DNA of 64,000 nt, taken from NCBI GenBank assembly GCA_048060725.1, contig JBGMQU010000003.1, positions 527 through 64,526 of the forward strand, written 5' to 3'. Below are positions 21,225-64,000 of the stretch, piece after piece. The position numbers were made by a program, and so were the translations under genes. The notes below the pieces were generated by a model. The model saw nothing but the letters and a program-made list of their open reading frames with translations. It did not search any database and had not been told where the DNA came from. Every line of letters starts with the position of its first letter. Position 1 is the first letter of the stretch. The stretch is from Gemmatimonadota bacterium. Lineage in GTDB: Bacteria; Gemmatimonadota; Gemmatimonadetes; Palauibacterales; Palauibacteraceae.

Positions 21225-21368
21225 GGCGCGAGGTGCGCGGGACAGGGGAACTCGTTTGGTGACGGGGCGTTGACGGATGCAACGTGAAGAGGTGACCATC
21301 CGTCAGACATGGGATGGGAAACGTCCGGGTCCCCAACAGGTAGACCGATGGCAGGCAGGAGCGATGGA

Positions 21369-22907
21369 ATGACCGGAAGCCGAGCCCGAGCCAGCACCCA
21401 CGCGTTGTGTGTCGCGACCCTGGTCGTGTTCTCCGCCGCGTGTGCCACGCAGACCGAGCCTACGACCGGTCCCAACCCTGCCGACGCGACCGACGTGTCC
21501 GAGCTGGCGATGCCGGCGGACGAGAACGCGACCCGTACGGGTGCGCCATCAGAAATGGGCGAGGGAGAACTCGTCGGGACCGAAGTCGTCGTGCCGGATC
21601 CGATCGACCCCGAGCCTCCACCCGAAGAGTTCCGCGGGCCCACCGACGAGGAACTCGATCACGCCCTGCGCGGCCTCCTTGGTTCCGACCCCATCGGCAT
21701 CGTACGCGACCCCGATGACGTCGAGAACCGGTTGCCTCTCGAAATGAATGATCGGGTCGAAGCCTGGATCAACTATTTCGAGAACGTCATTCCTGAACGG
21801 TTCGGGCTCTACCTCGAGAGGAAGAGCCGGTTTGAGCCGATGATCCGCGAGAAGCTCGCGGAACACGGTATGCCGCAGGACCTTATCTATCTCTCGCTCA
21901 TCGAGAGCGGGATGAACGCGAATGCGTACAGCCGCGCGGCGGCGGTCGGTCTCTGGCAGTTCATTCGGGGAACGGGCCGCATGTACGATCTCGAAGTGTC
22001 CTTCTGGGTCGACGAGCGGCGTGATCCGGAAAAAGCGACCGACGCAGCGCTTCGGTATCTGTCGGATCTCCACGACCGCTTTGGATCGTGGTATCTGGCG
22101 GCCGCGGCCTACAATGGCGGGCCGGGTCGAGTGTCGCGTGGCCTCGCACGGACCGGCGGAGGCTCGTTCTGGGATCTCGCCGACCGGCGGCTGCTCCGCT
22201 CCGAGACCCGCAACTACGTTCCCAAGATCATCGCGGCCGCCATTATCGGACACCACCCGGAGCGATACGGCTTCGTGGGGCTCGTACCCGAGAAGCCAGT
22301 GGTCTACGAGGTCGTCTTCGTACCGGACGCCACGAGTTTCGATGTGCTGGCGGAAGCGGCCGGGACCGACGAGCAGACGATCAGGGACCTCAACCCTCAG
22401 TACCCCCAGCGTGTGACGCCGCCCGGGCGGGGAGTGGACCTCAAGGTACCGTTGGGCGCCGCGGACGTCTTCGAGGTCGCCTACGCCGCGATTCCGGCGG
22501 ATGAGCGTGTGACGTGGACCTTCCATGTCGTGCAGCGCGGCCAGACGCTCGGTGGCATCGGTTCAAACTATGGCGTTTCAGTTGCCGCTTTGCGGGCGGC
22601 GAACGGGAACATCCACCCTCGCCGGCTCCAGATCGGCCAGCGGTTGGTGATCCCGAAACCGGCTCGTCCGGGCGGGACGTCCACGCGGACTGCCCCGTCT
22701 TCAGCGAGCGCCGGCGGTAACCAATCCGCGGTCGGCTCGGCGAGCCCTGGACGGGAGGGGGAGGGTCGAACCGTCGTCGTGCAGCGCGGTGACTCGCTGT
22801 GGACGATTGCCCGACGGTACGCGGTCTCGACCCAGGACTTGATGCGCTGGAACGGGCTCACGTCGACCGTGATCAAGGTCGGAGACCGACTCGAGGTCCG
22901 CGGGTAG
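21369..22907 (+). CDS. Lytic transglycosylase with LysM domains (MltD-like lipoprotein)
   Basis: The lipobox-like signal is LVVFSAAC. The SLT domain is YLSLIESGMNANAYSRAAAVGLWQF. Two C-terminal LysM repeats are present (VVQRGQTLGGIGSNYGVSVAAL... and VVQRGDSLWTIARRYAVSTQDL...). The start could instead be at 21309. Confidence 0.85.
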   Translation: MTGSRARASTHALCVATLVVFSAACATQTEPTTGPNPADATDVSELAMPADENATRTGAPSEMGEGELVGTEVVVPDPIDPEPPPEEFRGPTDEELDHALRGLLGSDPIGIVRDPDDVENRLPLEMNDRVEAWINYFENVIPERFGLYLERKSRFEPMIREKLAEHGMPQDLIYLSLIESGMNANAYSRAAAVGLWQFIRGTGRMYDLEVSFWVDERRDPEKATDAALRYLSDLHDRFGSWYLAAAAYNGGPGRVSRGLARTGGGSFWDLADRRLLRSETRNYVPKIIAAAIIGHHPERYGFVGLVPEKPVVYEVVFVPDATSFDVLAEAAGTDEQTIRDLNPQYPQRVTPPGRGVDLKVPLGAADVFEVAYAAIPADERVTWTFHVVQRGQTLGGIGSNYGVSVAALRAANGNIHPRRLQIGQRLVIPKPARPGGTSTRTAPSSASAGGNQSAVGSASPGREGEGRTVVVQRGDSLWTIARRYAVSTQDLMRWNGLTSTVIKVGDRLEVRG

Positions 22908-26597: not shown

Positions 26598-27731
26598 TCA
26601 GTGGCCTCCCAGAGCGGCACTCATGTCCGCAAGCAGCACCGATACGGTAGCTTGTGGATTCAGGTTTCTGTGGGCGTGTTCGCGGGCCGCCTCGACCGTC
26701 GCCAATGCTGCCAAAACGGCGGACTCCGAGAGGGGCCAGCGCTCGACGATCCGCGCGGACTTGCCGGCGTCGTGGACCAGCTCCGTAGCGCCGCTCGTGT
26801 AACAGAGTACGTCGCGGAGCCGCTCCTCCAGCTCCTCCAGCGCCGGCGCAAGAATCGACCGTGCCCCCTGCGCCGTGAACTGACTGGCCGCGGCATACCG
26901 GGCCCCGGGCTCACCACGCAGCGCCGCGGCAAGCAACCGGTCGGCGGTTGCCCCCGGCACATTGTCCTCACGGTCAGCCAGCGCGAGGGCCCGCCCAATC
27001 GATCCTTCCGCCCTGCGGGCGCCGCTGCGCGCTTCGTCTTTCGCGACACCCCGTGCGTCGATCAGGAAGCGCTCGACTTCCGCTTCCGCGAGCGGCGCGA
27101 CGCGCAGATTCGCGGTTCGAGACTGAATCGTGGGGAGGAGCGCGAAGGGCCGACTGGTGGTGAGGATGATATAGGCGAAGTCCGGCGGTTCCTCCAGGAG
27201 CTTGAGAAACGCGTTTGCCGCCTCCGGGCTCGCGCTCTGGGGGACCATCCGATCGGCTTCGGCGACGATGAACACGGCGATTCGACCCATGGCCGGCCGA
27301 CGCGATGCCTGCCGGCGAATGTTTTCGACGGCGGCGAGGTAGATTCCCGTGACCTCGCCGTCGTCCAGGCGCGCGCCCGGGTCGTCACGCAGCAGCGCCA
27401 GGCGGTCCTGCCGCTGGCCCTCGATCGTCTCCCGCAGCTTCTTTCGAGATCCGGCCCCCTTCGGCCGCGGCATCGGGAAGTAGTAATGGATGTCGGGGTG
27501 CTCGAGACGCGCGGCCATTCGACAACTCCGACAGTCTCCACACGGTGCGGGATCGCCTTCACAATGAAGGACAGCGGCCGTCCACAGCGCGACGGTCCGT
27601 TTGCCCACGCCCTCCGCTCCGTGGAGCAGAAGCGATTGCGGCAATCGTCGATTCGACACCGACGCGCGGATCCTGTCGAGCAGTTCCGCGTGTCCGTACA
27701 CAGCTGGCAGCCCGGCGTTCGGTCCGGTCAT
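26598..27731 (-). CDS. holB: DNA polymerase III subunit delta'
   Basis: The track ORF 26598..28877 is an artefactual extension. The ATG at 27731 overlaps the stop of the upstream gene (ATGA). LPQSLLLHGAEGVGKRTVALWTAAVLHCE...CGDCRSCRMAARLEHPD...AANAFLKLLEEPP fits delta'. Confidence 0.85.
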   Translation of the reverse strand: MTGPNAGLPAVYGHAELLDRIRASVSNRRLPQSLLLHGAEGVGKRTVALWTAAVLHCEGDPAPCGDCRSCRMAARLEHPDIHYYFPMPRPKGAGSRKKLRETIEGQRQDRLALLRDDPGARLDDGEVTGIYLAAVENIRRQASRRPAMGRIAVFIVAEADRMVPQSASPEAANAFLKLLEEPPDFAYIILTTSRPFALLPTIQSRTANLRVAPLAEAEVERFLIDARGVAKDEARSGARRAEGSIGRALALADREDNVPGATADRLLAAALRGEPGARYAAASQFTAQGARSILAPALEELEERLRDVLCYTSGATELVHDAGKSARIVERWPLSESAVLAALATVEAAREHAHRNLNPQATVSVLLADMSAALGGH

Positions 27732-28939
27732 CCCCGGTCGCGCAGCCAGCGTACGGGGTCGACCACGCGCGGACCTCCGGCGCTCGGCTCGTAGATCTGG
27801 AGTTCGATGTGCGGGGAATCGGCCTCCCCCCCGACTCGGCCAATCATCTGACCGAGCTGGACGGCCTGACCTTCGAGTACCGTGAGGCTCTGAAGTCGCG
27901 TGTACACCGAGTAGTACCCGCCGCCATGGTCCACGATCACCGTCTGGCCCGACGTGCGTGGGCCCGCGAACACGACGCTCCCCGCGTTGATGCTGCGGAC
28001 GGGAGTGCCCCGGGGCGCAGCGATGCCCACGCCTTCGCGGAAAATGGTTGTCGCTCCATCGCTCTGGGGTCCGAACCCGTACAGGATCTCGCCCTCCACC
28101 GGCCAATCGAGTCGACCCAGATCCGACGTCGTCAGCGTTGGCGTGCTGGAAATCCCCACGGTACGCTCGGCCTCGCGTCGCCGCGTCTCCAGCGTGGTGA
28201 TCATCCCGCGCAGTTGCTCCTCCTCGGCGGCGAGCTGCGTCAGTCGAGATTCGGTCTGCGATTGCTGGCTCGTGTAGTTGCGGAGCCGTCGCTGCCGCTG
28301 CTGCTCGAGCCGCGCGAGTTGGTCGAGCTCGGCCATCCGATCGTCGCGGGTTTGCTGAATTCGATCCGACTCTGTCGCGAGCTGGCCCCGCTGCACCTCG
28401 AGTTCCGTCTCGAGGTCCTGCACTTCCCGAACGAGGAGACGGTCGAACATCGAGATGTCGTGCAGATACCGATAGCGGTTGATGAGATTGGCGAAGGAAC
28501 GAGACGACAGCAGGACCTGAAACGTCGCGAGCGGTCCGCGCTTGTAGATCTCCCGCAGCCTGTGGCGGAGTACGGCCTTTCGAGCGGTCAGACGGTCCCG
28601 ATTGAGCAGCATGTCGCGCGTCATGATCGTCACCTGGTCGAGCAACGCACCGATCTGCACGTCGAGTTCGACCATCGCGCTCGCGGAGGCGGCGATCTGC
28701 CGCTCGATGTTCACGATCTCCGAGGAGACGTCGTGCACCTGGCCGCCGAGATCGTTCAGCTGGGTTTGAAGCGCCGAGCGCTCCCGGCGGATCTGGTCGA
28801 GTCGCCCCTGACTTTCCTGCAGCTGGCGAGAGATCTCTTCCGGATCCTGACCGATGGCGGCCGTGTGCGAGACACACGCTGCGACGGCCGCGAGCAACCA
28901 GGCGAAGCCAGCCCGGCGCCGAAGCCTTCTAGATCGCAT
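27728..28939 (-). CDS. M23 family peptidase, EnvC-like murein hydrolase activator
   Basis: A signal peptide is followed by a long coiled-coil region. The C-terminal LytM/M23 domain is LDWPVEGEILYGFG...GVGIAAPRGTPVRSINAGSVVFAG...GQTVIVDHGGGYYSVY. The gene sits directly downstream of ftsEX. Confidence 0.85.
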   Translation of the reverse strand: MRSRRLRRRAGFAWLLAAVAACVSHTAAIGQDPEEISRQLQESQGRLDQIRRERSALQTQLNDLGGQVHDVSSEIVNIERQIAASASAMVELDVQIGALLDQVTIMTRDMLLNRDRLTARKAVLRHRLREIYKRGPLATFQVLLSSRSFANLINRYRYLHDISMFDRLLVREVQDLETELEVQRGQLATESDRIQQTRDDRMAELDQLARLEQQRQRRLRNYTSQQSQTESRLTQLAAEEEQLRGMITTLETRRREAERTVGISSTPTLTTSDLGRLDWPVEGEILYGFGPQSDGATTIFREGVGIAAPRGTPVRSINAGSVVFAGPRTSGQTVIVDHGGGYYSVYTRLQSLTVLEGQAVQLGQMIGRVGGEADSPHIELQIYEPSAGGPRVVDPVRWLRDRG

Positions 28940-29801
28940 ACGCCTTCCCGAGTTCGCGCCGTACCGCCAGGACGGCGGCGAGCGCGCCCAGCACTGCCGC
29001 GGCTCCGATTCCGGCGACGATCCAGTGGTCGGGCAGCCACGCTATCGCCTCGAAGCCCGGAAAACGGGTCATGAACACCGAATATCCGAGCCGCGTGAAG
29101 GCGAGGGCGAGCAGCCCCCCGAGGAGCCCCGTGAAGAAACCTTCGACCAGGAAGGGGCGCTGGATGTAGCCTTCCGTGGCGCCGATGGTCTGCATTACCT
29201 CGATTTCCTCCGAGCGGGCGAGGATCGCCATCCGAACCGACGTGCCGATCAGTAACACGGCGACCAGAGCGAATGCACCGCCGAGGACTCCCGCGGCGCC
29301 CCCCACCATGCGTCGAATCGCGAAGAGTTGCTCGACCCAGCCCTCACCAAACCGGACATCCTCGATGAAGTCGTATCCGGAAAGACGCGCCGCGACCGTC
29401 TCGACCGCGTCGGGTCCCCGGAACCCTTCGGCGAGTCGCAGATGAAGGGAGGCAGGGAGGGGGTTCACCTCGAGGCCCTGATACACCTCGGAGAACTCGG
29501 ACAGATCCCGCCGTGCGGTTACGAGCGCCTCCGTCTTGGAAACGTACCGAACCTCTTCAATCTCGGGGTACGCCTCCATCTCACTGCGGGCGATCGCGAT
29601 TCTCTCCTCGCCGGCGTCCTCCAGCAAATATCCCACGACCTCCACGCGCCGCTCAACGTCGCCGATCGCGGCGCTGATGTTGTGGGCGCTCAGACTGAAC
29701 AACCCGAGGATCAACAGACTCAGCCCGATCGCACTGACCGACAACGCACTGAGCAGCGGCGATCGTCTGAAGCTCGCGAACGCCTCCCGGAATGGCCTCA
29801 T
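28929..29801 (-). CDS. ftsX: Cell division permease-like protein FtsX
   Basis: The 290-aa protein has the expected topology of one TM segment, a periplasmic domain and three TM segments. Its start overlaps the ftsE stop (ATGA). Confidence 0.85.
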   Translation of the reverse strand: MRPFREAFASFRRSPLLSALSVSAIGLSLLILGLFSLSAHNISAAIGDVERRVEVVGYLLEDAGEERIAIARSEMEAYPEIEEVRYVSKTEALVTARRDLSEFSEVYQGLEVNPLPASLHLRLAEGFRGPDAVETVAARLSGYDFIEDVRFGEGWVEQLFAIRRMVGGAAGVLGGAFALVAVLLIGTSVRMAILARSEEIEVMQTIGATEGYIQRPFLVEGFFTGLLGGLLALAFTRLGYSVFMTRFPGFEAIAWLPDHWIVAGIGAAAVLGALAAVLAVRRELGKAYAI

Positions 29802-30607
29802 CCGATCTCCTCCGGCAGCGGGGCCGGCGACGGTGTGTCGGTGGAAAGCGGGACGTCGGCGGCGGGGTCGGCCGGCGCATCTTCCTCGCGATCGACCTGC
29901 GCGGCGGTCCTGGCTTCGTCGACGGCCGCCTCCGCGCCAGCAGCCACGGAGTCGTACACGAGTTTTCCGTGCTCGAGCTCCAGTACGCGAATCTCGGGAT
30001 TGTGCTCGATGAGCTGGGCGTCGTGGGTCGCCATCACGATCGTCATCCCCAGCCGATTGACGGTTCGGAAGATCTGAAGCACGCCGTCGGCCGCCCGAGG
30101 ATCCAGGTTTCCAGTCGGCTCGTCGGCGAGGAGCACCAGCGGGTCGGTCGCCAGCGCACGGGCGATCACGACGCGCTGGCGCTCGCCTCCCGACAACTCT
30201 TCCGGCATCGACCGCGCCTTCGCGGCGAGACCGACTTCACTCAGCAATCGTTGTACTCGACCGTCGACCTCGCCGCGGGGCGTGCCGGTCACCTCGAGCG
30301 CGAACGCGACGTTCTCGCCCGCGGTCAGCCGATCGAGGAGTTTGAAGTCCTGAAAGACGTAGCCGACACGTCGGCGGAGATCCGGGACCTGACGCCGCCG
30401 GACCCGCGCCGAATTGTACCGCGATATCTGGACCTGCCCCTCGGTGGGACGGGTCTGGAAGTGAATCAACTGAAGCAGGGTGGTCTTTCCGGCCCCGGAG
30501 TGGCCCGTGAGGAAAACGAATTCGCCCTTCCGGATGTGGAACGTCACATCCTCGATGGCGGACCCCGTCTTCGGGTAGGTCTTCGTCACATTTCGAAAGC
30601 GGATCAT
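29798..30607 (-). CDS. ftsE: Cell division ATP-binding protein FtsE
   Basis: MIRFRNVTKTY, Walker A GHSGAGKTT, the signature LSGGERQRV and Walker B LLADEPTGNLD. A ~45-aa acidic, Pro-rich C-terminal extension is present. Confidence 0.9.
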   Translation of the reverse strand: MIRFRNVTKTYPKTGSAIEDVTFHIRKGEFVFLTGHSGAGKTTLLQLIHFQTRPTEGQVQISRYNSARVRRRQVPDLRRRVGYVFQDFKLLDRLTAGENVAFALEVTGTPRGEVDGRVQRLLSEVGLAAKARSMPEELSGGERQRVVIARALATDPLVLLADEPTGNLDPRAADGVLQIFRTVNRLGMTIVMATHDAQLIEHNPEIRVLELEHGKLVYDSVAAGAEAAVDEARTAAQVDREEDAPADPAADVPLSTDTPSPAPLPEEIG

Positions 30608-42345: not shown

Positions 42346-42816
42346 GTGGCTGAAGACGAGGGCATCAAGATCGTCGCGCGCAACAGAAAGGCGCGTCACG
42401 AGTATGAGATCCTCGAGGAGTACGAGGCCGGTCTCGTGCTGAAGGGCGCGGAAGTGAAGTCTCTGCGGAACGGCCAGGCCAGTTTTGCCGATTCGTTCGG
42501 ACGCGTCCAGAACGGTGAGTTCTGGCTGCACAGCCTTCACATTCCGCCGTACGAGAACGCGTCGGTCGATACGCTTGATCCCGTTCGCCCGCGAAAGCTG
42601 CTCTTGCACAGGAGAGAGATAGACCGGCTACGCGCGAAAACGGAGGAGGCCGGCCTGACGCTGGTGCCGCTCGACATCCACTTTCGCGGGGGTCGGGCCA
42701 AGATCCAGATGGGGCTGGCGAGAGGAAAAAAGCGATACGATCGGCGAGAGGACCTGAAGAAGAAGGCGATGAAACGCGATGCGGACAGGGCGGTCACGGA
42801 CGCGCTGCGTCGGTGA
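42346..42816 (+). CDS. smpB: SsrA-binding protein
   Basis: IVARNRKARHEYEILEEYEAGLVLKGAEVKSLR...HIPPYE...RPRKLLLHRREI. Confidence 0.95.
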   Translation: MAEDEGIKIVARNRKARHEYEILEEYEAGLVLKGAEVKSLRNGQASFADSFGRVQNGEFWLHSLHIPPYENASVDTLDPVRPRKLLLHRREIDRLRAKTEEAGLTLVPLDIHFRGGRAKIQMGLARGKKRYDRREDLKKKAMKRDADRAVTDALRR

Positions 42817-42835
42817 TGCGCGCCGGGGAGGGGAC

Positions 42836-43987
42836 GTGAAGGGCGGGGCGTGGCTGGTCGCTCTCGTGCTGGCGGTCGGGCCGACAGACGCGCTCGCACA
42901 GGCCCAACCCGAGCGTGTCGAGGCCGAGGTCGGGGGGCGTCGAGCGGGACTGCGGGTCTCGAGCCACCAGGCGTACCCCGTGGTCAACGGCGGCGAACTC
43001 GTCTCCGCCGTGCTCGATGCGGGGACGGTGTCTGGATCTTTCCTCAGGGCCCGACTCGGGTCCGCCGAGCTCGTCCTGGAGGCGGGATCGCCCTTCTTCC
43101 AATATGGAAACCGGGCGTTTCAACTCGCGAATGCGCCGTATTTGTGGGGCGGAGCCTTCTGGATTCCTGTCGAATTCGTGACCGATTGGCTGCCTACATA
43201 TGCAGGAGGCCCCACCTCCGTCACCACGATCGTAGAGGACGAAATGGCCCGTCGCGTCGACCCGACGGTGCCGTGGCACGTGGTGATAGACGCGGGCCAC
43301 GGCGGGCGCGATCCGGGCACGCTCGGGGATCGGTCCCGTGAGAAGGACATCGTACTCGCGATCAGCCGTGCACTGCGCGATGAACTGAGAGCGACCGGCA
43401 CGATCGAGCCTGCGATGACGCGCGATACCGATGTCTACGTTCCGCATGACGATCGGTCGGCTTTCGCGGTGGAGCAGGGGGGTGACCTGTTCGTATCGAT
43501 CCACGCGAATTCGGTCCCATCGGCCAGTTCGGCTCGGGGCTTCGAGACGTACTTCCTCGGGCCGGCCCGCTCGGAAGAGGCCAGAAGGGTCGCGCTCCGC
43601 GAGAATCGGACGCCCGACGTCGGAGGGGCGCACGCCGGGTCCATCGACGATCGTCTCTTCATCCTCACCGGTCTCGACCGTACGGAGAACATCTCGGAGT
43701 CGCGTCGATTCGCGGGTTTCGTCCAGAATGCTCTGCGGGAAGCCAGGGGGGCCGGCGTGCCCGACCGCGGAGTGAAACAGGGTCCGTGGTGGGTGTTGCT
43801 GGGGGCGTTGGCCCGGATGCCGTCGGTAATCATCGAGGTGGGATTCGTGAGCAACCCGCGCGAGGAGGCGTACCTGGCCAGCGTGGAGGGACAGCGGGAG
43901 GTGGCGCGGGCGATCGCGCGGGCCATCGTGTCGTACCGGGAGGATGTGATACGAAGATTCTCCGGTCAGGAAGGAGCGGGGCGCTGA
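42836..43987 (+). CDS. N-acetylmuramoyl-L-alanine amidase (Amidase_3) with AMIN-like N-terminal domain
   Basis: I chose the GTG at 42836, preceded by a GGGGAGGGG SD-like sequence. A signal peptide is present. VVIDAGHGGRDPG...EKDIVLAI...FVSIHANS...ETYF...VIIEVGFVSNPRE fits Amidase_3. Confidence 0.85.
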   Translation: MKGGAWLVALVLAVGPTDALAQAQPERVEAEVGGRRAGLRVSSHQAYPVVNGGELVSAVLDAGTVSGSFLRARLGSAELVLEAGSPFFQYGNRAFQLANAPYLWGGAFWIPVEFVTDWLPTYAGGPTSVTTIVEDEMARRVDPTVPWHVVIDAGHGGRDPGTLGDRSREKDIVLAISRALRDELRATGTIEPAMTRDTDVYVPHDDRSAFAVEQGGDLFVSIHANSVPSASSARGFETYFLGPARSEEARRVALRENRTPDVGGAHAGSIDDRLFILTGLDRTENISESRRFAGFVQNALREARGAGVPDRGVKQGPWWVLLGALARMPSVIIEVGFVSNPREEAYLASVEGQREVARAIARAIVSYREDVIRRFSGQEGAGR

Positions 43988-44786: not shown

Positions 44787-45704
44787 ATGGCCCAGACGCT
44801 GTTCGGCGTCGAGATCGCCAGCCCGGTCTTTCTGGCGTCGGGCACGTGCGGGTACGGTCAGGAGTATGCGGACCTGATTCCGCTCGACGAAATCGGGGGA
44901 ATCTTCACGAAAGCCGTGAGCATCGAACCCCGCACGGGGAATCCCCCGCACCGCGTCGCCGAGACGCCGGGCGGGATGATCAATGCGATCGGCCTCGAAA
45001 ACGTCGGTCTCGACCGATTCATTTCCGAGAAGCTCGTGTGGCTTCGCGAGCACCTGACGCGAGCGCACGTGTTCGTCAACGTGGTCGGCCGAACCGCGGA
45101 CGAGTATGCGGCCGTCGTGTCCGGCCTCGACCCGCACGACGGGTTCCTGGGGTTCGAGATCAACGTGTCCTGCCCCAACGTGACGGGCGGCACGATGTTC
45201 GGTACCGACGAGTCGGCGCTCGCCGATCTGGTCGCTCGCCTCCGTAAGGAGACCGATCGTCCGCTGGTGATCAAGCTCACACCGAACGTGGCCGACGTCG
45301 GTGTCTTCGCGCGAATCTGCGAGGAGCAGGGGGCCGATGGGCTGAGCGCGATCAACACGTTCCCCGGCATGCTCATCGACACGGCGTCGCGTCGCCCGGT
45401 GATCGGCAATCGGTCGGGCGGTGTGAGCGGCCCCGCGATTCTCCCCATGGGCGTCTATGCGACGTGGCGTGCGCGGCAGGTGACCAAGATCCCGATCATC
45501 GGGATCGGAGGGATTCGAAACGGAGACGATGCGGTCCAGTACCTGCTGGCCGGGGCCGCCCTGGTGCAGGTCGGGACGGCGTCCTTCGTCGACCCTGACG
45601 CCGCCGTCACTACACACGCGGGGATACGGGACTATCTCGAGACCCACCGCGTGGCCCGGCTGGAGGATCTCGTAGGAACACTGATCGACCAACCTCCCGC
45701 ATGA
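44787..45704 (+). CDS. pyrD: Dihydroorotate dehydrogenase catalytic subunit (class 1B)
   Basis: The ATG at 44787 gives LFGVEIASPVFLASGTCGYG...GMINAIGLENVGLD...INVSCPNV...IKLTPNV...GLSAINT...GGVSGPAI...IIGIGGI. Confidence 0.9.
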   Translation: MAQTLFGVEIASPVFLASGTCGYGQEYADLIPLDEIGGIFTKAVSIEPRTGNPPHRVAETPGGMINAIGLENVGLDRFISEKLVWLREHLTRAHVFVNVVGRTADEYAAVVSGLDPHDGFLGFEINVSCPNVTGGTMFGTDESALADLVARLRKETDRPLVIKLTPNVADVGVFARICEEQGADGLSAINTFPGMLIDTASRRPVIGNRSGGVSGPAILPMGVYATWRARQVTKIPIIGIGGIRNGDDAVQYLLAGAALVQVGTASFVDPDAAVTTHAGIRDYLETHRVARLEDLVGTLIDQPPA

Positions 45705-47200
45705 CCGGGACCCGCGGGCTGGTGGATCGCGCGTCCGCCCTGTTCGAGGAATGGCGGGGCAGCGCCCCCGATGACGTCTCCCCGGTTGCCGGAGACGGTT
45801 CGGCTCGACGGTACTGGCGCCTGACCGGTCCGGACGGTGCCACCGCGCTCGGCGCGTACGGTCCCGATCGGGATGAGAACCGGGCCTTTGTAGCGTTTTC
45901 CCGCACGTTTCGGGAGATCGGCCTGCGCGTCCCCGAGCTTTACGCCGTCGACGAGGCGAGCGGTGTATGGCTGCTGGAGGACCTCGGCGACCGGACCCTG
46001 TTCGAGATGCTTCGGATGGCGCGCGAGCCTTATGATGACCGGTTTCCGGAGACGATGCTCCCCATCTATCGTCGCGTGCTCGAGGAGTTGCCGCGTTTCC
46101 AGGTGTTGGGTGGGCAGTCGATCGACTTCCGGATCGCCTATCCACGGGCGGCGTTCGACCGCCAGTCGATCCTCTGGGACCTCAACTATTTCAAATACCA
46201 TTTTCTCAAGCTCGCGCATCTCCCGTTCAACGAGGCGAAGCTGGAAAAGGACTTCGGCCGGCTCGCCCGCTTCCTGCTGACAGCCGAGACCGGGCACTTC
46301 CTCTACCGGGACTTCCAGTCGAGGAACGTGATGGTGCGCGACGGCGCCGACGGCCCGGAGCCGTGGTTCATCGACTATCAGGGAGGGCGGCGCGGCGCGC
46401 TCCAGTATGACGTCGCGTCGTTGCTGTACGATGCGAAGGTCAACCTGGACGATGGACTGCGAGCCCACCTGCTCGACCACTATCTCGAGGCGCTCGCTTC
46501 GCACCACGCGATCGATCGGTCGGCTTTTCTCGAGACCTGGCCGGGATACGTCCTCGTCAGGATTCTCCAGGCGCTCGGGGCGTACGGATACCGCGGCTTT
46601 TTCGAGCGAAAACCACGGTTCCTGCAGAGCGTCCCATACGCGGCGAAGAACCTGGCGGGCCTTCTGGACGCGGGGTTGCCGCTGAATGTCCCTGAGCTCG
46701 AGACGGCGCTCACGCGGATCGTCGAACGTTGGGGAGAGTCTGTCTCCACGGATACGGTGGACGATACGCTCACCGTGTCGACTGGCAGCTTCAGGTTTTC
46801 GGGCGGGTACCCCCAGGATACGAGCGGGCACGGTGGCGGCTACGTCTTCGATTGTCGCGGACTGACCAACCCGGGGCGGGAGGAGGAGTATCGGCGTCTC
46901 ACGGGGCTCGATCGACGCACGATCTCGTTTCTCGAGGGACGGCCGGAGGTAGAGGCTTTCTGGGATCGGGTGCGGACGCTCGTCGATGCGCACGTAGTGG
47001 AGTACCGCGAGCGCGGGTTCTCCCACCTCAGCGTGTACTTCGGCTGTACGGGCGGGCAGCACCGGTCGGTGTACTTCGCGGAGCGGCTTGCGGCTCATTT
47101 GCGAGACGTGTGTCCGGATGTGGGGGTGAACGTGGTGCACCGGGAGAGCGCGGATTGGCCCCGACCCCGGGGGAGTGAGGGGCGGCCGTGCAGGCAATGA
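45701..47200 (+). CDS. AmgK-like amino-sugar (MurNAc/GlcNAc) anomeric kinase fused to a RapZ-C-terminal-like domain
   Basis: Residues ~1-340 form an APH-fold kinase with AGDGSARRYWR and LYRDFQSRNVMV, which match the AmgK signatures GDASxRRYxR and HRDxxSRNLM as I recall them. Residues ~372-499 read SFRFSGGYPQD...YVFDCRGLTNP...LTGLD...VYFGCTGGQHRSVYFAERLA. This aligns with the E. coli RapZ C-terminal domain ([24 protein letters not shown]...MTGLD...IGCTGGKHRSVYIAEQLA). The start overlaps the pyrD stop (ATGA). Confidence 0.75.
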   Translation: MTGTRGLVDRASALFEEWRGSAPDDVSPVAGDGSARRYWRLTGPDGATALGAYGPDRDENRAFVAFSRTFREIGLRVPELYAVDEASGVWLLEDLGDRTLFEMLRMAREPYDDRFPETMLPIYRRVLEELPRFQVLGGQSIDFRIAYPRAAFDRQSILWDLNYFKYHFLKLAHLPFNEAKLEKDFGRLARFLLTAETGHFLYRDFQSRNVMVRDGADGPEPWFIDYQGGRRGALQYDVASLLYDAKVNLDDGLRAHLLDHYLEALASHHAIDRSAFLETWPGYVLVRILQALGAYGYRGFFERKPRFLQSVPYAAKNLAGLLDAGLPLNVPELETALTRIVERWGESVSTDTVDDTLTVSTGSFRFSGGYPQDTSGHGGGYVFDCRGLTNPGREEEYRRLTGLDRRTISFLEGRPEVEAFWDRVRTLVDAHVVEYRERGFSHLSVYFGCTGGQHRSVYFAERLAAHLRDVCPDVGVNVVHRESADWPRPRGSEGRPCRQ

Positions 47201-47943
47201 TCCTCGCCGCAGGCGAAGGGCGGCGGTTGCGCCCGGTCACCGATCACACGCCCAAGGCCCTGGTGGATGTGGGGGGTGCCACCGCGTTGGAGCGGGTTGC
47301 CGCGGCGCTGGCCGCGGCAGGTGTGGATCACCTCATCGTCAACGCGCACCACTTCGCGGACGAAGTCGAACGGGCGGCGCTCGAGCTCGTCCGGCCGGGA
47401 CTGCGGGTCACCGTGTCGCGCGAGGACCACGAGTCTGCCTCGGCCCTCGAGACGGGCGGAGCGCTGGCGTTCGCCCGGGAGAGGTTCGATGGAAACGCAC
47501 CGTTTTTCCTGCACAACGCAGATGTGCTGACCGACCTGGATCTCGCCGCGGTCTACGATTCCCACGTTCGAGGTGTGATCGACGACGGTCGCCTCGCGAC
47601 CCTCGTCGTAACTCGACGCGAGACCACTCGGCCTTTGCGTGCCGACGAACTCGGGATCTACGGGCGCGCCAACCGCACGGAAGGGTGGGATGTGGCTTAC
47701 CGACAGCCGGTCGGACCGACGCTCGAGGTCGGGTTCTCCGGAATTCACGTGTTGTCTCCGGGGATCCTGCGGCATTTCACGGCGGGCGGGGCGTACTCGA
47801 TCATCGATGTGTACATGAGGCTCGTGGCGGCCGGCGACGTCATCGCATGCTACGACGCGACCGACTCGTCGTGGTATGACATCGGGACCCCGGACCGGCT
47901 TGCCGACGCCCGAGCCGTCTTTCAAGAGGAGGCAAGCGAGTGA
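47188..47943 (+). CDS. murU: N-acetylmuramate alpha-1-phosphate uridylyltransferase-like nucleotidyltransferase
   Basis: MQAMILAAGEGRRLRPVTDHTPKALVDVGG parallels the MurU/NTP-transferase N-terminus MKAMILAAGKGERMRPLT. The gene directly follows the AmgK-like gene. Confidence 0.75.
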   Translation: MQAMILAAGEGRRLRPVTDHTPKALVDVGGATALERVAAALAAAGVDHLIVNAHHFADEVERAALELVRPGLRVTVSREDHESASALETGGALAFARERFDGNAPFFLHNADVLTDLDLAAVYDSHVRGVIDDGRLATLVVTRRETTRPLRADELGIYGRANRTEGWDVAYRQPVGPTLEVGFSGIHVLSPGILRHFTAGGAYSIIDVYMRLVAAGDVIACYDATDSSWYDIGTPDRLADARAVFQEEASE

Positions 47944-61882: not shown

Positions 61883-62407
61883 CTACGAGGTGATCAGGTC
61901 GAGGATGTCATCGATGGCGCCCTCAGCAATCTGTTCCAGTTCGGCAGGGGAGCGGTTCTGGATCGGGTGCGGAACCCAGACGATCCCCGGCTCGAACCCG
62001 AGCGACCGCGACTGCTTGGCCGCCGCGTCCCGGAACTCCGTCGTCACGACGAAGCAGCCCGGTACGCCCCGGTCATCGAGCGCCTTCAGGTCGTGCAGAC
62101 CGCACGACGTGCAGGATCCTCAGTCGGCGAGTGCCTGGACGACGGCGTGCGCCTCCGTCGCGATCCGCTGGAGGATGTCGGGGGAGGCGGTCCGCGCGTT
62201 CGTGGGTTTCCTCGATCGGATCGTGTCGACGCCGCGCGCGGTCAACCGCATCTCGAGATAGTCGAGGAACTCCTCACTGCGCGCCTTCCCGATCCCCTGG
62301 AGGGCGACGACCTTGCCGACAAGGCTGGCCGGCGGGGCCCTTCGGGGCCGGACGACAGGTTCCGTCTCGGCCGTAGGGTCGCACAGCACATTGACCGCGT
62401 CGTTCAT
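61883..62407 (-). CDS. Selenoprotein with U-G-S-C redox motif (UGA-recoded; 174 aa, Sec at residue 96)
   Basis: The track ORF ends at TGA 62120-62122, but the same frame stays open for 78 more G/C3-rich codons to TAG 61883-61885. Hand translation gives MNDAVNVL...EAHAVVQALAD-U-GSCTSCGLHDLKALDDRGVPGCFVVTTEFRDAAAKQSRSLGFEPGIVWVPHPIQNRSPAELEQIAEGAIDDILDLITS. A SECIS-like hairpin lies 11 nt downstream of the UGA. The ATG at 62407 overlaps the stop of the upstream gene (ATGA). I recall a curated family named 'UGSC family (seleno)protein', and this should be verified. Confidence 0.8.
62090..62108 (-). promoter_or_regulatory. Bacterial SECIS element (apical stem-loop)
   Basis: The minus-strand RNA reads UGA-GGAUCCUGCAC-GUCGUGC-GGUCU-GCACGAC, a perfect 7-bp stem with a GGUCU loop. 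Numbering the U of UGA as +1, the loop spans +22 to +26, with G at +23 and U at +24. This is the same geometry and GGUC loop as the E. coli fdhF SECIS, as I recall it. Confidence 0.75.
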
Positions 62408-63855
62408 GTCCGGATCTCCCTCGTTACCGGATGCGAATGCTCGTGAGCCCGCCCGCCCGGCCAGCCGGGCAGGATCGCCGAGAACAGCCCTGCAGGCCCG
62501 CCCGCCCGGGCGATCAGCAGGCCGTCTGGGGGGAACTTCGGGATCATGTCGTCCGCCCGCGAGGCCGGCATGCCCTCCCCGACGCCGCCCGCGCCCTCGA
62601 TGAGATCCCGGCCCGGCCGGGTGGTCGCGTCGGTCAGCGCACGGGTGATCCGGGTCCGATCCCAGCCGGCGTCCCGGAAGATCGCGTAGTGCTCCGGCGA
62701 GAGCAGGAGCAGCGTGAACGCCCATTCGCAGAGCTTCGGGTGGCCGACCGACACGAGGCTCATCGCGAGAGACCGCACCAGTTCTTCGGGGGTGCGGGAC
62801 TGCTGGTCCACGAACCCCTGCACGCCCTCTCCCTGGAACAGCGTGACCGCGTTACGGCCCGGGGCGACGCCGCGCGACGTGGCGAGCGGCTCCCACTCCG
62901 GGTCGGACTCGTCTTCGGCGAAACACTGCGTGAACTTGCTCGCCGAGCCGAACGTCGCCCGGTCGATGCCGCCCGGCCTCCCGCCGCCGACGTTCTGGAC
63001 GATGAGGTTCAGCGCGCGACCGATTGTGGCGTTCGCCCGATTCCCCTGGCCGAGGACGTTGATTCCGGAGTTCATGCCGAGTCGACGGGCCATGGGGCCG
63101 TTCACGATGATGACCGGGGTGCTGAAGCAGGTGCTGCACAGAATCGCGTGGAGCGTGAAGCCCGGTTCCAGCGCCGCCTCCACGATTCCCAGGAGGAGCG
63201 GCATGTACTCCGGCCTGCAGCCGGCCATCACCGCGTTGATCGCCACCTTTTCGACGGTGCACTCCACGAGATCGGGCGGGATCTTCCCCACCATCTCCTC
63301 TGCCGGACGGGGCGTGCCCCCGAGCATCCGCACGATTCGCTCCGGCGTGGGGGGGACCACCGGGAGCCCATCCGTCCACCCCCGGTCGAAACAGGTTTCC
63401 ATCGGGTCGGTGAACTCCGGGACGTGAATGAGGCGGGAGCTGAGGCCGGTGTCCCCGTAGCGGACCAGAAGGGTCTCCGGAACTCCCGGCTCCACGGATT
63501 TTGAACCGCACCCAGGCCGATGCTTCGGGAGTCCCTCGCCGAGACCGTCGATCTCCGTCAGCCGCTCCCAATCGGCGCGGTTCCACCCGACGACCCGATC
63601 GATTTCGTCTCCGTCCACGAACCGAATCAGCGTCGGGACGGTCTCGATTCGCAGGCGAAAGGAGTGCTCGAGCGATCGGTCATCGATTACCCCGTCGACG
63701 TCCGGGGGGAATCCCGGATCGTCCTGGCTGTACACGACGATCTCGGCGTCGGCGGTGCTCAGCCGGTGAAGGACCGGCCCGACGAGCCGGCAGGCGGGGC
63801 AGTCCTCCTTCACCACCGCGACGAGCCCGGTTCGCAGAGGGTCGGAACCCCTCAC
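62404..63855 (-). CDS. Thioredoxin-fold (CPAC) domain fused to a ~380-aa domain of unknown function
   Basis: The GTG at 63855 lies 5 nt after the upstream stop; the track start at 63972 would overlap the upstream gene. The N-terminus LVAVVKEDCPACRLVGPVLHRL...VPTLIRFVDGDE is thioredoxin-like with a CxxC motif. The large C-terminal domain is Cys-containing and I cannot name it (CFDRGWTDGLPVVPPT..., AILCSTCFSTPVIIVNGP...). Confidence 0.7.
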   Translation of the reverse strand: MRGSDPLRTGLVAVVKEDCPACRLVGPVLHRLSTADAEIVVYSQDDPGFPPDVDGVIDDRSLEHSFRLRIETVPTLIRFVDGDEIDRVVGWNRADWERLTEIDGLGEGLPKHRPGCGSKSVEPGVPETLLVRYGDTGLSSRLIHVPEFTDPMETCFDRGWTDGLPVVPPTPERIVRMLGGTPRPAEEMVGKIPPDLVECTVEKVAINAVMAGCRPEYMPLLLGIVEAALEPGFTLHAILCSTCFSTPVIIVNGPMARRLGMNSGINVLGQGNRANATIGRALNLIVQNVGGGRPGGIDRATFGSASKFTQCFAEDESDPEWEPLATSRGVAPGRNAVTLFQGEGVQGFVDQQSRTPEELVRSLAMSLVSVGHPKLCEWAFTLLLLSPEHYAIFRDAGWDRTRITRALTDATTRPGRDLIEGAGGVGEGMPASRADDMIPKFPPDGLLIARAGGPAGLFSAILPGWPGGRAHEHSHPVTREIRT

Positions 63856-63859
63856 CTGC

Positions 63860-64000
63860 CTACCCGCTCCCCGGAGCCGCCTCGAGACGGTAGGCGACGA
63901 CCCAGGTGACGTCGAACTCCCCCACCTCGAAGGCCCACACGCGGTCGCCGGAAGCGGCAACGAGCTTCGCATGGTCCGGGGCCCGGAGCTCGCCGAGGTA
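63860..64000 (-). CDS. Hypothetical protein (partial; 5' end beyond the right window edge)
   Basis: Hand translation of the open minus-strand frame gives ...YLGELRAPDHAKLVAASGDRVWAFEVGEFDVTWVVAYRLEAAPGSG, ending at TAG 63860-63862. Codons are G/C3-rich. I do not recognise a family. Confidence 0.4.
   Translation of the reverse strand, partial: YLGELRAPDHAKLVAASGDRVWAFEVGEFDVTWVVAYRLEAAPGSG

Follow-up and report, generated by a model that had tools for sequence, protein, structure and literature searches.

Two described systems stand close to the gene reported here. In the first, AmgK and MurU form the Pseudomonas-type shortcut by which UDP-N-acetylmuramic acid (UDP-MurNAc) is made by salvage (Gisin et al. 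2013, summarised in PMC5371407, PMC13046382). Tannerella forsythia, which is without MurA and MurB, makes UDP-MurNAc via AmgK and MurU (PMC7670621), and its two enzymes are functional in Escherichia coli, where they yield UDP-MurNAc (PMC10941766, PMC13041923). In the second, RapZ, a P-loop kinase-like N-terminal domain precedes the C-terminal domain (PMC5737377), and the E. coli C-terminal domain alone binds glucosamine-6-phosphate (GlcN6P) with a dissociation constant (KD) of about 10 nM and also binds the RNAs GlmY and GlmZ (PMC7073468). The gene described here, from a Gemmatimonadota bacterium (contig JBGMQU010000003.1), joins an AmgK-like kinase to a RapZ C-terminal domain (RapZ_C) and lies within a stretch of 64,000 nucleotides which was analysed as a whole and is called the window. 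The fusion was first proposed from the letters of the window alone (the sequence-only reading), and the RapZ properties stated on that occasion are borne out by the two RapZ papers cited above. The domain combination as such is already on record in Pfam annotations and in NCBI names like 'RapZ C-terminal domain-containing protein'. A literature search on both names found no paper linking AmgK with RapZ and, going by titles and abstracts, nothing in the literature containing both 'RapZ' and 'MurNAc' appears to treat the fusion. The protein combines an enzyme of a known pathway with an accessory domain that is unstudied, and its interest lies mainly in what may be learnt from it about the RapZ C-domain.

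Architecture and distribution of the fusion

Domain organization was analyzed with Pfam profiles and predicted structures, and both gave the two-domain architecture claimed at the outset, with PF01636 followed by PF22740 in a single open reading frame (ORF; coordinates in Table 1). The aminoglycoside phosphotransferase (APH) profile PF01636 matched residues 26-267 (45776-46501) with an E-value of 1.6e-8 and 35 bits against a cut-off of 23. The RapZ_C profile PF22740, whose search the sequence-only reading had proposed for the C-terminal part, matched with an E-value of 1.1e-29 and scored 103.6 bits (gathering score 27); of its 121 positions, 2-119 were aligned. The motifs FDxR, NP, TGLD and GCTGGxHRSVY, on which the RapZ likeness had been based, are all there and conserved. 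The AlphaFold model of the whole protein shows two well-predicted domains, with a mean predicted local distance difference test score (pLDDT) of 89 and a predicted template-modelling score (pTM) of 0.70. Between them the pLDDT falls below 50 at residues 348-353 of the linker, and one homologue (P0098) carries a long insertion at this point.

The architecture is widely distributed. A word-indexed search matched at least 8000 proteins; the best 120 of these are 463-546 residues long, share 59-81% identity with the window protein and nearly all possess both Pfam domains, and the named sources among the 120 are all Gemmatimonadota (Candidatus Palauibacter, Gaopeijia maritima and Longimicrobiales). 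Among representatives clustered at 50% identity, 787 were recovered at E <=1e-30 when searched exhaustively with HMMER, and the best 150 of these are mostly full-length matches of 455-510 residues with 38-60% identity. When one genome per GTDB species was scanned, at least 597 matches were confirmed, and 80 of these loci, all holding the full-length fusion, were used for the locus counts given below. The survey of its taxonomic range, also suggested by the sequence-only reading, placed these 80 loci in at least six phyla, including Gemmatimonadota, Acidobacteriota (Terriglobales), Bacteroidota, Elusimicrobia, Ignavibacteriales and Verrucomicrobiota. The Bacteroidota among them comprise Bacteroidales, Prevotella, Phocaeicola plebeius DSM 17135, Alloprevotella rava, Tannerella, Chitinophagaceae and Sphingobacterium, and Eremiobacteraceae, Opitutaceae and Bdellovibrionales are also represented. 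Two loci from Acutalibacteraceae isolates, Firmicutes by name (L044 and L045), hold the full-length fusion together with murU and show 42-44% identity to the query, which resembles the Bacteroidales copies. These two copies may reflect horizontal transfer or mis-binning.

This distribution bears directly on the possibility that two separate genes had been joined by an assembly or frameshift artefact, a frameshift being the danger which the sequence-only reading had itself named. The same contiguous architecture is found in thousands of independent assemblies and in isolates, among them complete T. forsythia genomes as well as Phocaeicola plebeius DSM 17135. Since the fusion is contiguous in the homologues, a frameshift is ruled out, and mis-assembly was rejected on the same ground. 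Likewise, the G+C content at third codon positions (GC3) is even along the ORF at 0.81 and matches that of other real genes of this window of about 65% GC. The chance of an artefact is thus negligible, and the fusion is real.

The kinase domain and its MurU-like neighbour

The N-terminal part showed its closest relation to APH-fold small-molecule kinases. In a PDB sequence search the best match was 3csv, a putative aminoglycoside phosphotransferase, over residues 20-313 (E 2.5e-23), and the same entry was the best structural match in Foldseek (E 1e-13; template-modelling (TM) score 0.78 normalised to the target), followed by corramycin kinase, methylthioribose kinase and choline kinase. The catalytic and metal-binding loops align with HRDFHAQN and IDFQD of 3csv, and a YD(V/L)xSLLxDA(K/R) motif further downstream is also common to both. 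Unlike the fusion, 3CSV (from Silicibacter sp. TM1040) is a single-domain protein of 333 residues and has no RapZ_C. The catalytic and metal-binding motifs are invariant in 40 diverse homologues, and the kinase should be active. The best NCBIfam matches of the kinase part were two AmgK equivalogs, NF045698 (58 bits against a cut-off of 500) and NF045759 (56 against 550). With the motifs RDFxSRN and IDYQ..YDxASLL.DAK, AmgK as top NCBIfam match and 3csv as top PDB match, the AmgK-like kinase of the first proposal holds good.

Compared with AmgK itself, the protein shares the APH fold, the motifs RDFxSRN and IDxQ...YDxxSLL.DA[RK] and a MurU-like gene directly after it, but differs by the additional RapZ_C domain of about 150 residues. 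As the NCBIfam AmgK models have 324 and 360 positions, which is the size of a kinase domain, the AmgK proteins which these models describe are evidently without RapZ_C. The fusions form a separate and very large clade extending over Gemmatimonadota, Acidobacteriota, Bacteroidota and other phyla. Three near relatives of the kinase domain (51-72% identity) stand apart: P0123 (624 residues) has no detectable RapZ_C and carries an unrelated C-terminal extension instead, and P0157 (345 residues) and P0263 (330 residues) are too short for RapZ_C. For these three, either truncated gene calls or true unfused forms could be the explanation.

The gene directly downstream encodes a protein matching NTP_transferase (PF00483, 64.6 bits in Pfam), and MurU (NF045761) was its top NCBIfam match with 118 bits against a cut-off of 250. 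A MurU-like gene follows directly on the same strand in 63 of the 80 genome loci. Clustering of all neighbouring ORFs gave MurU, found in 64 of the 80 loci, as the sole conserved neighbour; the two clusters ranking after it were antisense shadow ORFs of murU. The sequence-only reading had placed the fusion in an AmgK-MurU salvage context because of this neighbour, and the profile match, the top family and the recurrent adjacency all agree with it. In the window, the ATG of the fusion shares nucleotides with the stop codon of the preceding pyrD-like gene (45701-45704), and a Zn-dependent dehydrogenase/Qor-like gene begins before the MurU-like gene has ended, its start overlapping the MurU-like stop codon (47940-47943). 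The overlapping start and stop codons along the series pyrD-like, fusion, murU-like and Qor-like suggest translational coupling. No terminator-like site above chance was found between the operon genes, and promoter-like sites were also at chance level. In other genomes, pyrK/pyrD and Qor are not kept as neighbours of the fusion. In 9 of the 150 best representatives (P0139, P0168, P0194, P0199, P0231, P0232, P0251, P0255 and P0262) the three domains APH, RapZ_C and NTP_transferase are joined in that order in triple fusions of 712-816 residues.

The route to a studied enzyme leads through Tannerella. A Tannerella sp. locus (L042) encodes a 484-residue fusion followed by murU. A cluster represented by P0323 (477 residues, both domains) is 73% identical to this fusion and includes the T. 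forsythia proteins AEW21661.1 = WP_014224875.1 (92A2/ATCC 43037) and BAR48916.1 (KS16). On its contig the gene of WP_014224875.1 overlaps a 249-residue NTP_transferase (MurU) gene, and the window protein aligns with WP_014224875.1 over its full length (43% identity over 477 residues, E 2e-132). The characterized T. forsythia AmgK is therefore very probably this fusion protein, judging by homology and synteny. By the same T. forsythia orthologue and the conserved synteny, a salvage function of the kinase and its MurU-like partner in the window is itself quite likely. The AmgK-type anomeric kinase would phosphorylate salvaged MurNAc or N-acetylglucosamine (GlcNAc) at C1, giving MurNAc-alpha-1-phosphate from MurNAc, and the MurU-like uridylyltransferase, which is probably coupled to it in translation, would convert MurNAc-alpha-1-phosphate to UDP-MurNAc.

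The RapZ C-terminal domain and its possible roles

The C-terminal domain was predicted to have the fold of the RapZ C-terminal domain. Residues 356-470 matched residues 159-267 of E. coli RapZ (5o5s/5o5o) with an E-value of about 1e-16 in a PDB sequence search. A model of residues 350-499 alone (pLDDT 92, pTM 0.86) was aligned by Foldseek to the RapZ C-terminal domain 5o5s with a TM score of 0.90, a root-mean-square deviation of 1.9 Å and 38% identity. The significant PDB matches of this model were 16 E. coli RapZ chains only. The matches that followed had E-values >0.8, with phosphofructokinases among them, and a phosphofructokinase resemblance of RapZ was reported previously (PMC5737377). 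The fold is shared with the family of RapZ (E. coli structures 5O5O, 5O5S and 8B0I), YvcJ and Rv1421, as are the GCTGGxHRSV loop, the FDxR and NP motifs and a functional neighbourhood of amino-sugar and cell-envelope precursor metabolism. Unlike in that family, the genomic context is murU and not rpoN-ptsN-npr or yvcK-whiA. Canonical rapZ, sought by tblastn and by Pfam on 39 ORFs, was not found within the 64-kb window.

To follow residue conservation, E. coli RapZ was aligned with the C-domains of 40 diverse fusion proteins. In E. coli numbering, S166, F167, P174, F181, D182, R184, N188, P189, G200, D202, G246, C247, T248, G249, G250, H252, R253, S254, V255 and H276 are kept in at least 36 of the 40, mostly in 39-40. 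The sulfate/malonate pocket of E. coli RapZ is made up of H190, T248, G249, H252 and R253 (PMC5737377), and C247 adjoins it (PMC9841335). Four residues of this quintet are kept in the fusions, with H190 replaced by Gly: T450, G451, H454 and R455 (E. coli T248, G249, H252 and R253) are conserved together with C449 in 39-40 of the 40, and G392 takes the place of H190 in 37. The phosphate-binding loop sits between strand 442-449 and helix 455-470 in the model, its Cys being present in 39 and its Arg and Ser in all 40. Further differences around the RapZ pocket are C385 in place of V183 (40/40), R438 in place of N236 (Arg in 38/40) and R393, next to G392, which stands at the position of W191 and is Arg or Lys in 37/40. 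Along with these, the fusions have five more residues than E. coli RapZ between D176 and Y179, where a Gly-rich loop, xSG(H/N)GGG, is inserted; the adjoining residue I175 was named as near the E. coli pocket (PMC9841335). The changes at H190, W191 and N236, like the insertion after I175/D176, fall on pocket positions that PMC9841335 names or beside them. One protein (P0254) has a degenerate C-domain with FISDKGLMRSVY instead of FGCTGGQHRSVY and is without the NPG and HGGG motifs; rare lineages have evidently been able to dispense with the pocket.

A number of these proteins carry names that point to RNA. In NCBI and other public records, members of the T. forsythia cluster go by 'phosphotransferase enzyme family', by 'GlmZ(sRNA)-inactivating NTPase' or by 'RNase adapter RapZ', and the APH+RapZ_C proteins P0030, P0044, P0076 and P0088 carry RapZ-type names too. 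Such names, the RapZ_C domain itself and the contact of the E. coli pocket with the RNA backbone (PMC9841335) would fit a protein that binds RNA as an RNase adaptor, in the manner of E. coli RapZ. Against it, the RapZ model NF003828 was matched at positions 152-277 only, with 95.7 bits against 244, and the N-terminal 345 residues have the APH fold, not a P-loop domain that bears Walker A/B motifs. The fusion has Gly in place of H190, a residue that GlmZ cleavage requires. The basic RNA-binding tail of E. coli type (RxRxKNxQxRHRTxxKRK; K270, K281, R282 and K283) is absent from the fusion alignment; the C-terminal tail (HRESADWPRPRG...) is variable or missing across the family and only H480 (E. 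coli H276) is conserved there. The RNA-binding motif and GlmY/GlmZ are confined to Enterobacteriaceae (PMC7073468, PMC7525490), and no Rfam family, GlmY and GlmZ included, was matched in the 64-kb window. An RNA adaptor is thus highly improbable. Both 'RNase adapter RapZ' and 'GlmZ(sRNA)-inactivating NTPase' are wrong as names because the RapZ N-domain and the RNA-binding tail are absent, and identity with the RapZ equivalog was rejected for the same absences and the score below the NF003828 cut-off.

The main rival to a regulatory role is a catalytic one, in which RapZ_C would be a Cys-dependent phosphosugar-transforming domain using its C-X5-R-S loop. It might act as a phosphatase of MurNAc-6-phosphate or of GlcN(Ac)-6-phosphate giving a MupP-like step before AmgK, and the cassette would then hold three consecutive steps. 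C449-X5-R455-S456 fits the Cys-phosphatase P-loop signature in a strand-loop-helix setting, and the fusions have another invariant Cys, C385. In E. coli RapZ, C247A and C247S each abolish activity, the authors propose that the thiol 'fulfils a specialised catalytic function', and the pocket showed density of 'a chemically transformed product' of GlcN6P (PMC9841335). Phosphatase activity is reported for Bacillus subtilis YvcJ (PMC7525490, citing Luciano 2009). RapZ_C is also more conserved than the kinase domain, with mean pairwise identities of 46.8% and 38.6% across the 40 homologues. On the other side, the likeness to the C-X5-R-(S/T) loops of protein tyrosine phosphatases (PTP), low-molecular-weight PTP (LMW-PTP) and ArsC is one of motif and setting only. 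No PTP, LMW-PTP, ArsC, EIIB or rhodanese-type fold appeared among the Foldseek PDB matches, where RapZ alone was significant and phosphofructokinase weak, and a PTP-like fold was rejected at this level. Moreover, RapZ C-terminal domains carry no assigned catalytic or phosphatase activity, and the chemistry from AmgK to MurU requires no additional step. An enzyme is accordingly improbable. Equally improbable is its broader form, that RapZ_C is ancestrally an amino-sugar-phosphate enzyme domain and that the fusions and triple fusions represent a three-step channel from MurNAc-6-phosphate to UDP-MurNAc; if true, enterobacterial RapZ would have come to its RNA-adaptor role late, by repurposing that active site.

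The domain could also be merely a dimerisation or scaffold module which assembles the kinase, perhaps with MurU, into an oligomer, ligand binding being irrelevant. The E. coli RapZ C-terminal domain dimerises alone and D182A abolishes this (PMC7073468, PMC5737377); D384, the equivalent of this dimer contact, is conserved in 39 of the 40 fusions, and the flexible linker suggests an independent module. A scaffold leaves the near-invariant T450, G451, H454, R455 and C449 unexplained, as it does the fusion-specific Gly-rich loop and the pocket-side Arg residues, and it is therefore unlikely, though less so than an enzyme. The pairwise identities of the kinase and RapZ_C domains in 40 diverse representatives were also compared by a Mantel test (r = 0.11, 350 of 2000 permutations at least as high), which is uninformative on co-evolution of the domains since representatives clustered at 50% identity are about equally distant from each other.

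The explanation favoured here is a UDP-MurNAc salvage kinase bearing a regulatory RapZ_C module that binds a phosphorylated amino sugar. A flexible linker would connect RapZ_C with the kinase; the module has the anion (phosphate) loop of RapZ kept and all features which make E. coli RapZ an RNA adaptor lost, and it would probably dimerise like the RapZ C-terminal domain. That it binds a phosphorylated sugar is likely, given the conserved loop. Because H190 is replaced by Gly, two Arg residues are added and a Gly-rich stretch is inserted, GlcN6P is not necessarily the ligand. With two additional basic residues and the insertion, the pocket is remodelled and more basic than that of E. coli RapZ, which suggests a ligand other than GlcN6P, probably a larger or more anionic one. 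More probable is a phosphate of MurNAc or some related species, and a phosphorylated MurNAc species, bearing an extra carboxylate, would be the natural candidate. RapZ_C would then tune the flux through the salvage kinase to the amino-sugar-phosphate pool. This sensing would be consistent with the near-invariant phosphate pocket, but it is put forward tentatively, at somewhat less than an even chance. Taken as a whole, the explanation has about an even chance of being right.

Several points weigh against it. The kinase scores far under the NCBIfam AmgK equivalog cut-offs (56-58 bits against 500-550), and the neighbouring MurU-like protein is likewise far below its own. The T. forsythia-type proteins score equally low (65 and 30 bits with the AmgK models and 141 bits with the MurU model), for which reason the low scores reflect the coverage of the models and not lost function. 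The equation of T. forsythia AmgK with the fusion rests on synteny and homology. The flexible, variable linker and the pTM of 0.70 give no sign of tight allosteric packing between the domains. The triple fusions add little on the role of RapZ_C because read-through of adjacent genes could produce them. Finally, binding of UDP-GlcNAc in YvcJ depends on K22 of Walker A in the N-domain (PMC7525490) and in Rv1421 also maps to the N-domain (PMC11229554); as this domain is absent here, UDP-GlcNAc sensing is not simply transferable to the fusion.

Surroundings and meaning of the fusion

Other genes of cell-wall remodelling are present in the window. An Amidase_3 N-acetylmuramoyl-L-alanine amidase lies three genes upstream of the fusion on the same strand, and the window also holds an SLT lytic transglycosylase that has LysM domains, and an FtsE/FtsX pair accompanied by an M23 peptidase whose coiled coil is PcsB-like. 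None of these is conserved beside the fusion in other genomes. An ORF of 521 residues on the reverse strand (62404-63972) has a gene-like GC3 of 0.86 and no Pfam match at E <=1e-5.

Table 1. Coordinates of the fusion gene, its parts and the related genes in the window.
Feature	Position	Strand	Remarks
AmgK-like kinase + RapZ_C fusion gene	45701..47200	+	ATG start, uninterrupted ORF, 499 residues
Kinase domain, residues 1-345	45701..46735	+	APH/protein-kinase-like fold, AmgK type
Catalytic-loop motif R203-D204-F-Q-S-R-N209	46307..46327	+	R203, D204 and N209 invariant in 40/40 diverse homologues
Metal-binding motif D225-Y-Q227 of 'IDYQ' (DFG equivalent)	46373..46381	+	D225 and Q227 invariant in 40 homologues
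Linker, residues 346-357	46736..46771	+	Variable among homologues, low model confidence
RapZ C-terminal domain (PF22740), residues 358-482	46772..47146	+	Pfam profile
Fusion-specific Gly-rich loop H377-G378-G379-G380	46829..46840	+	G378 in 40/40
F383-D384-C385-R386...N390-P391-G392-R393	46847..46879	+	Alignment with E. coli RapZ
Phosphate-binding loop C449-T-G-G-Q-H454-R455-S456 (C-X5-R-S)	47045..47068	+	Equals E. coli C247-T248-G249-G250-K-H252-R253-S254
MurU-like sugar-1-phosphate uridylyltransferase, 251 residues	47188..47943	+	GTG start, 13-nt overlap with the end of the fusion gene
Cell-wall remodelling gene regions	42779-43987; 21309-22907; 27728-30607	+; +; -	

The MurU pathway was still listed in 2026 as seen in few species (PMC13046382), and from the distribution of the fusion the MurU salvage route appears far more widespread than that. 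In thousands of genomes RapZ_C is hard-wired to a different kinase, and sometimes to MurU too, inside a defined two-enzyme pathway, and the carriers include Bacteroidota that abound in the gut and mouth as well as Acidobacteriota and Gemmatimonadota of soil. In T. forsythia, AmgK and MurU are the only route of the organism to UDP-MurNAc and are in use as a tool for peptidoglycan labelling, so that an unrecognised regulatory or catalytic domain in its AmgK would matter to the design of probes and as a target of drugs. In the RapZ literature RapZ_C has been described as a repurposed metabolic domain (PMC9841335). The role of RapZ/YvcJ outside Enterobacteriaceae, and the purpose of the C-domain pocket and its essential Cys, are questions which the fusion could address, as it provides a clean biochemical setting for finding the ligand or activity of RapZ_C. 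The fusion thereby offers a way to learn the original function of the RapZ C-domain.

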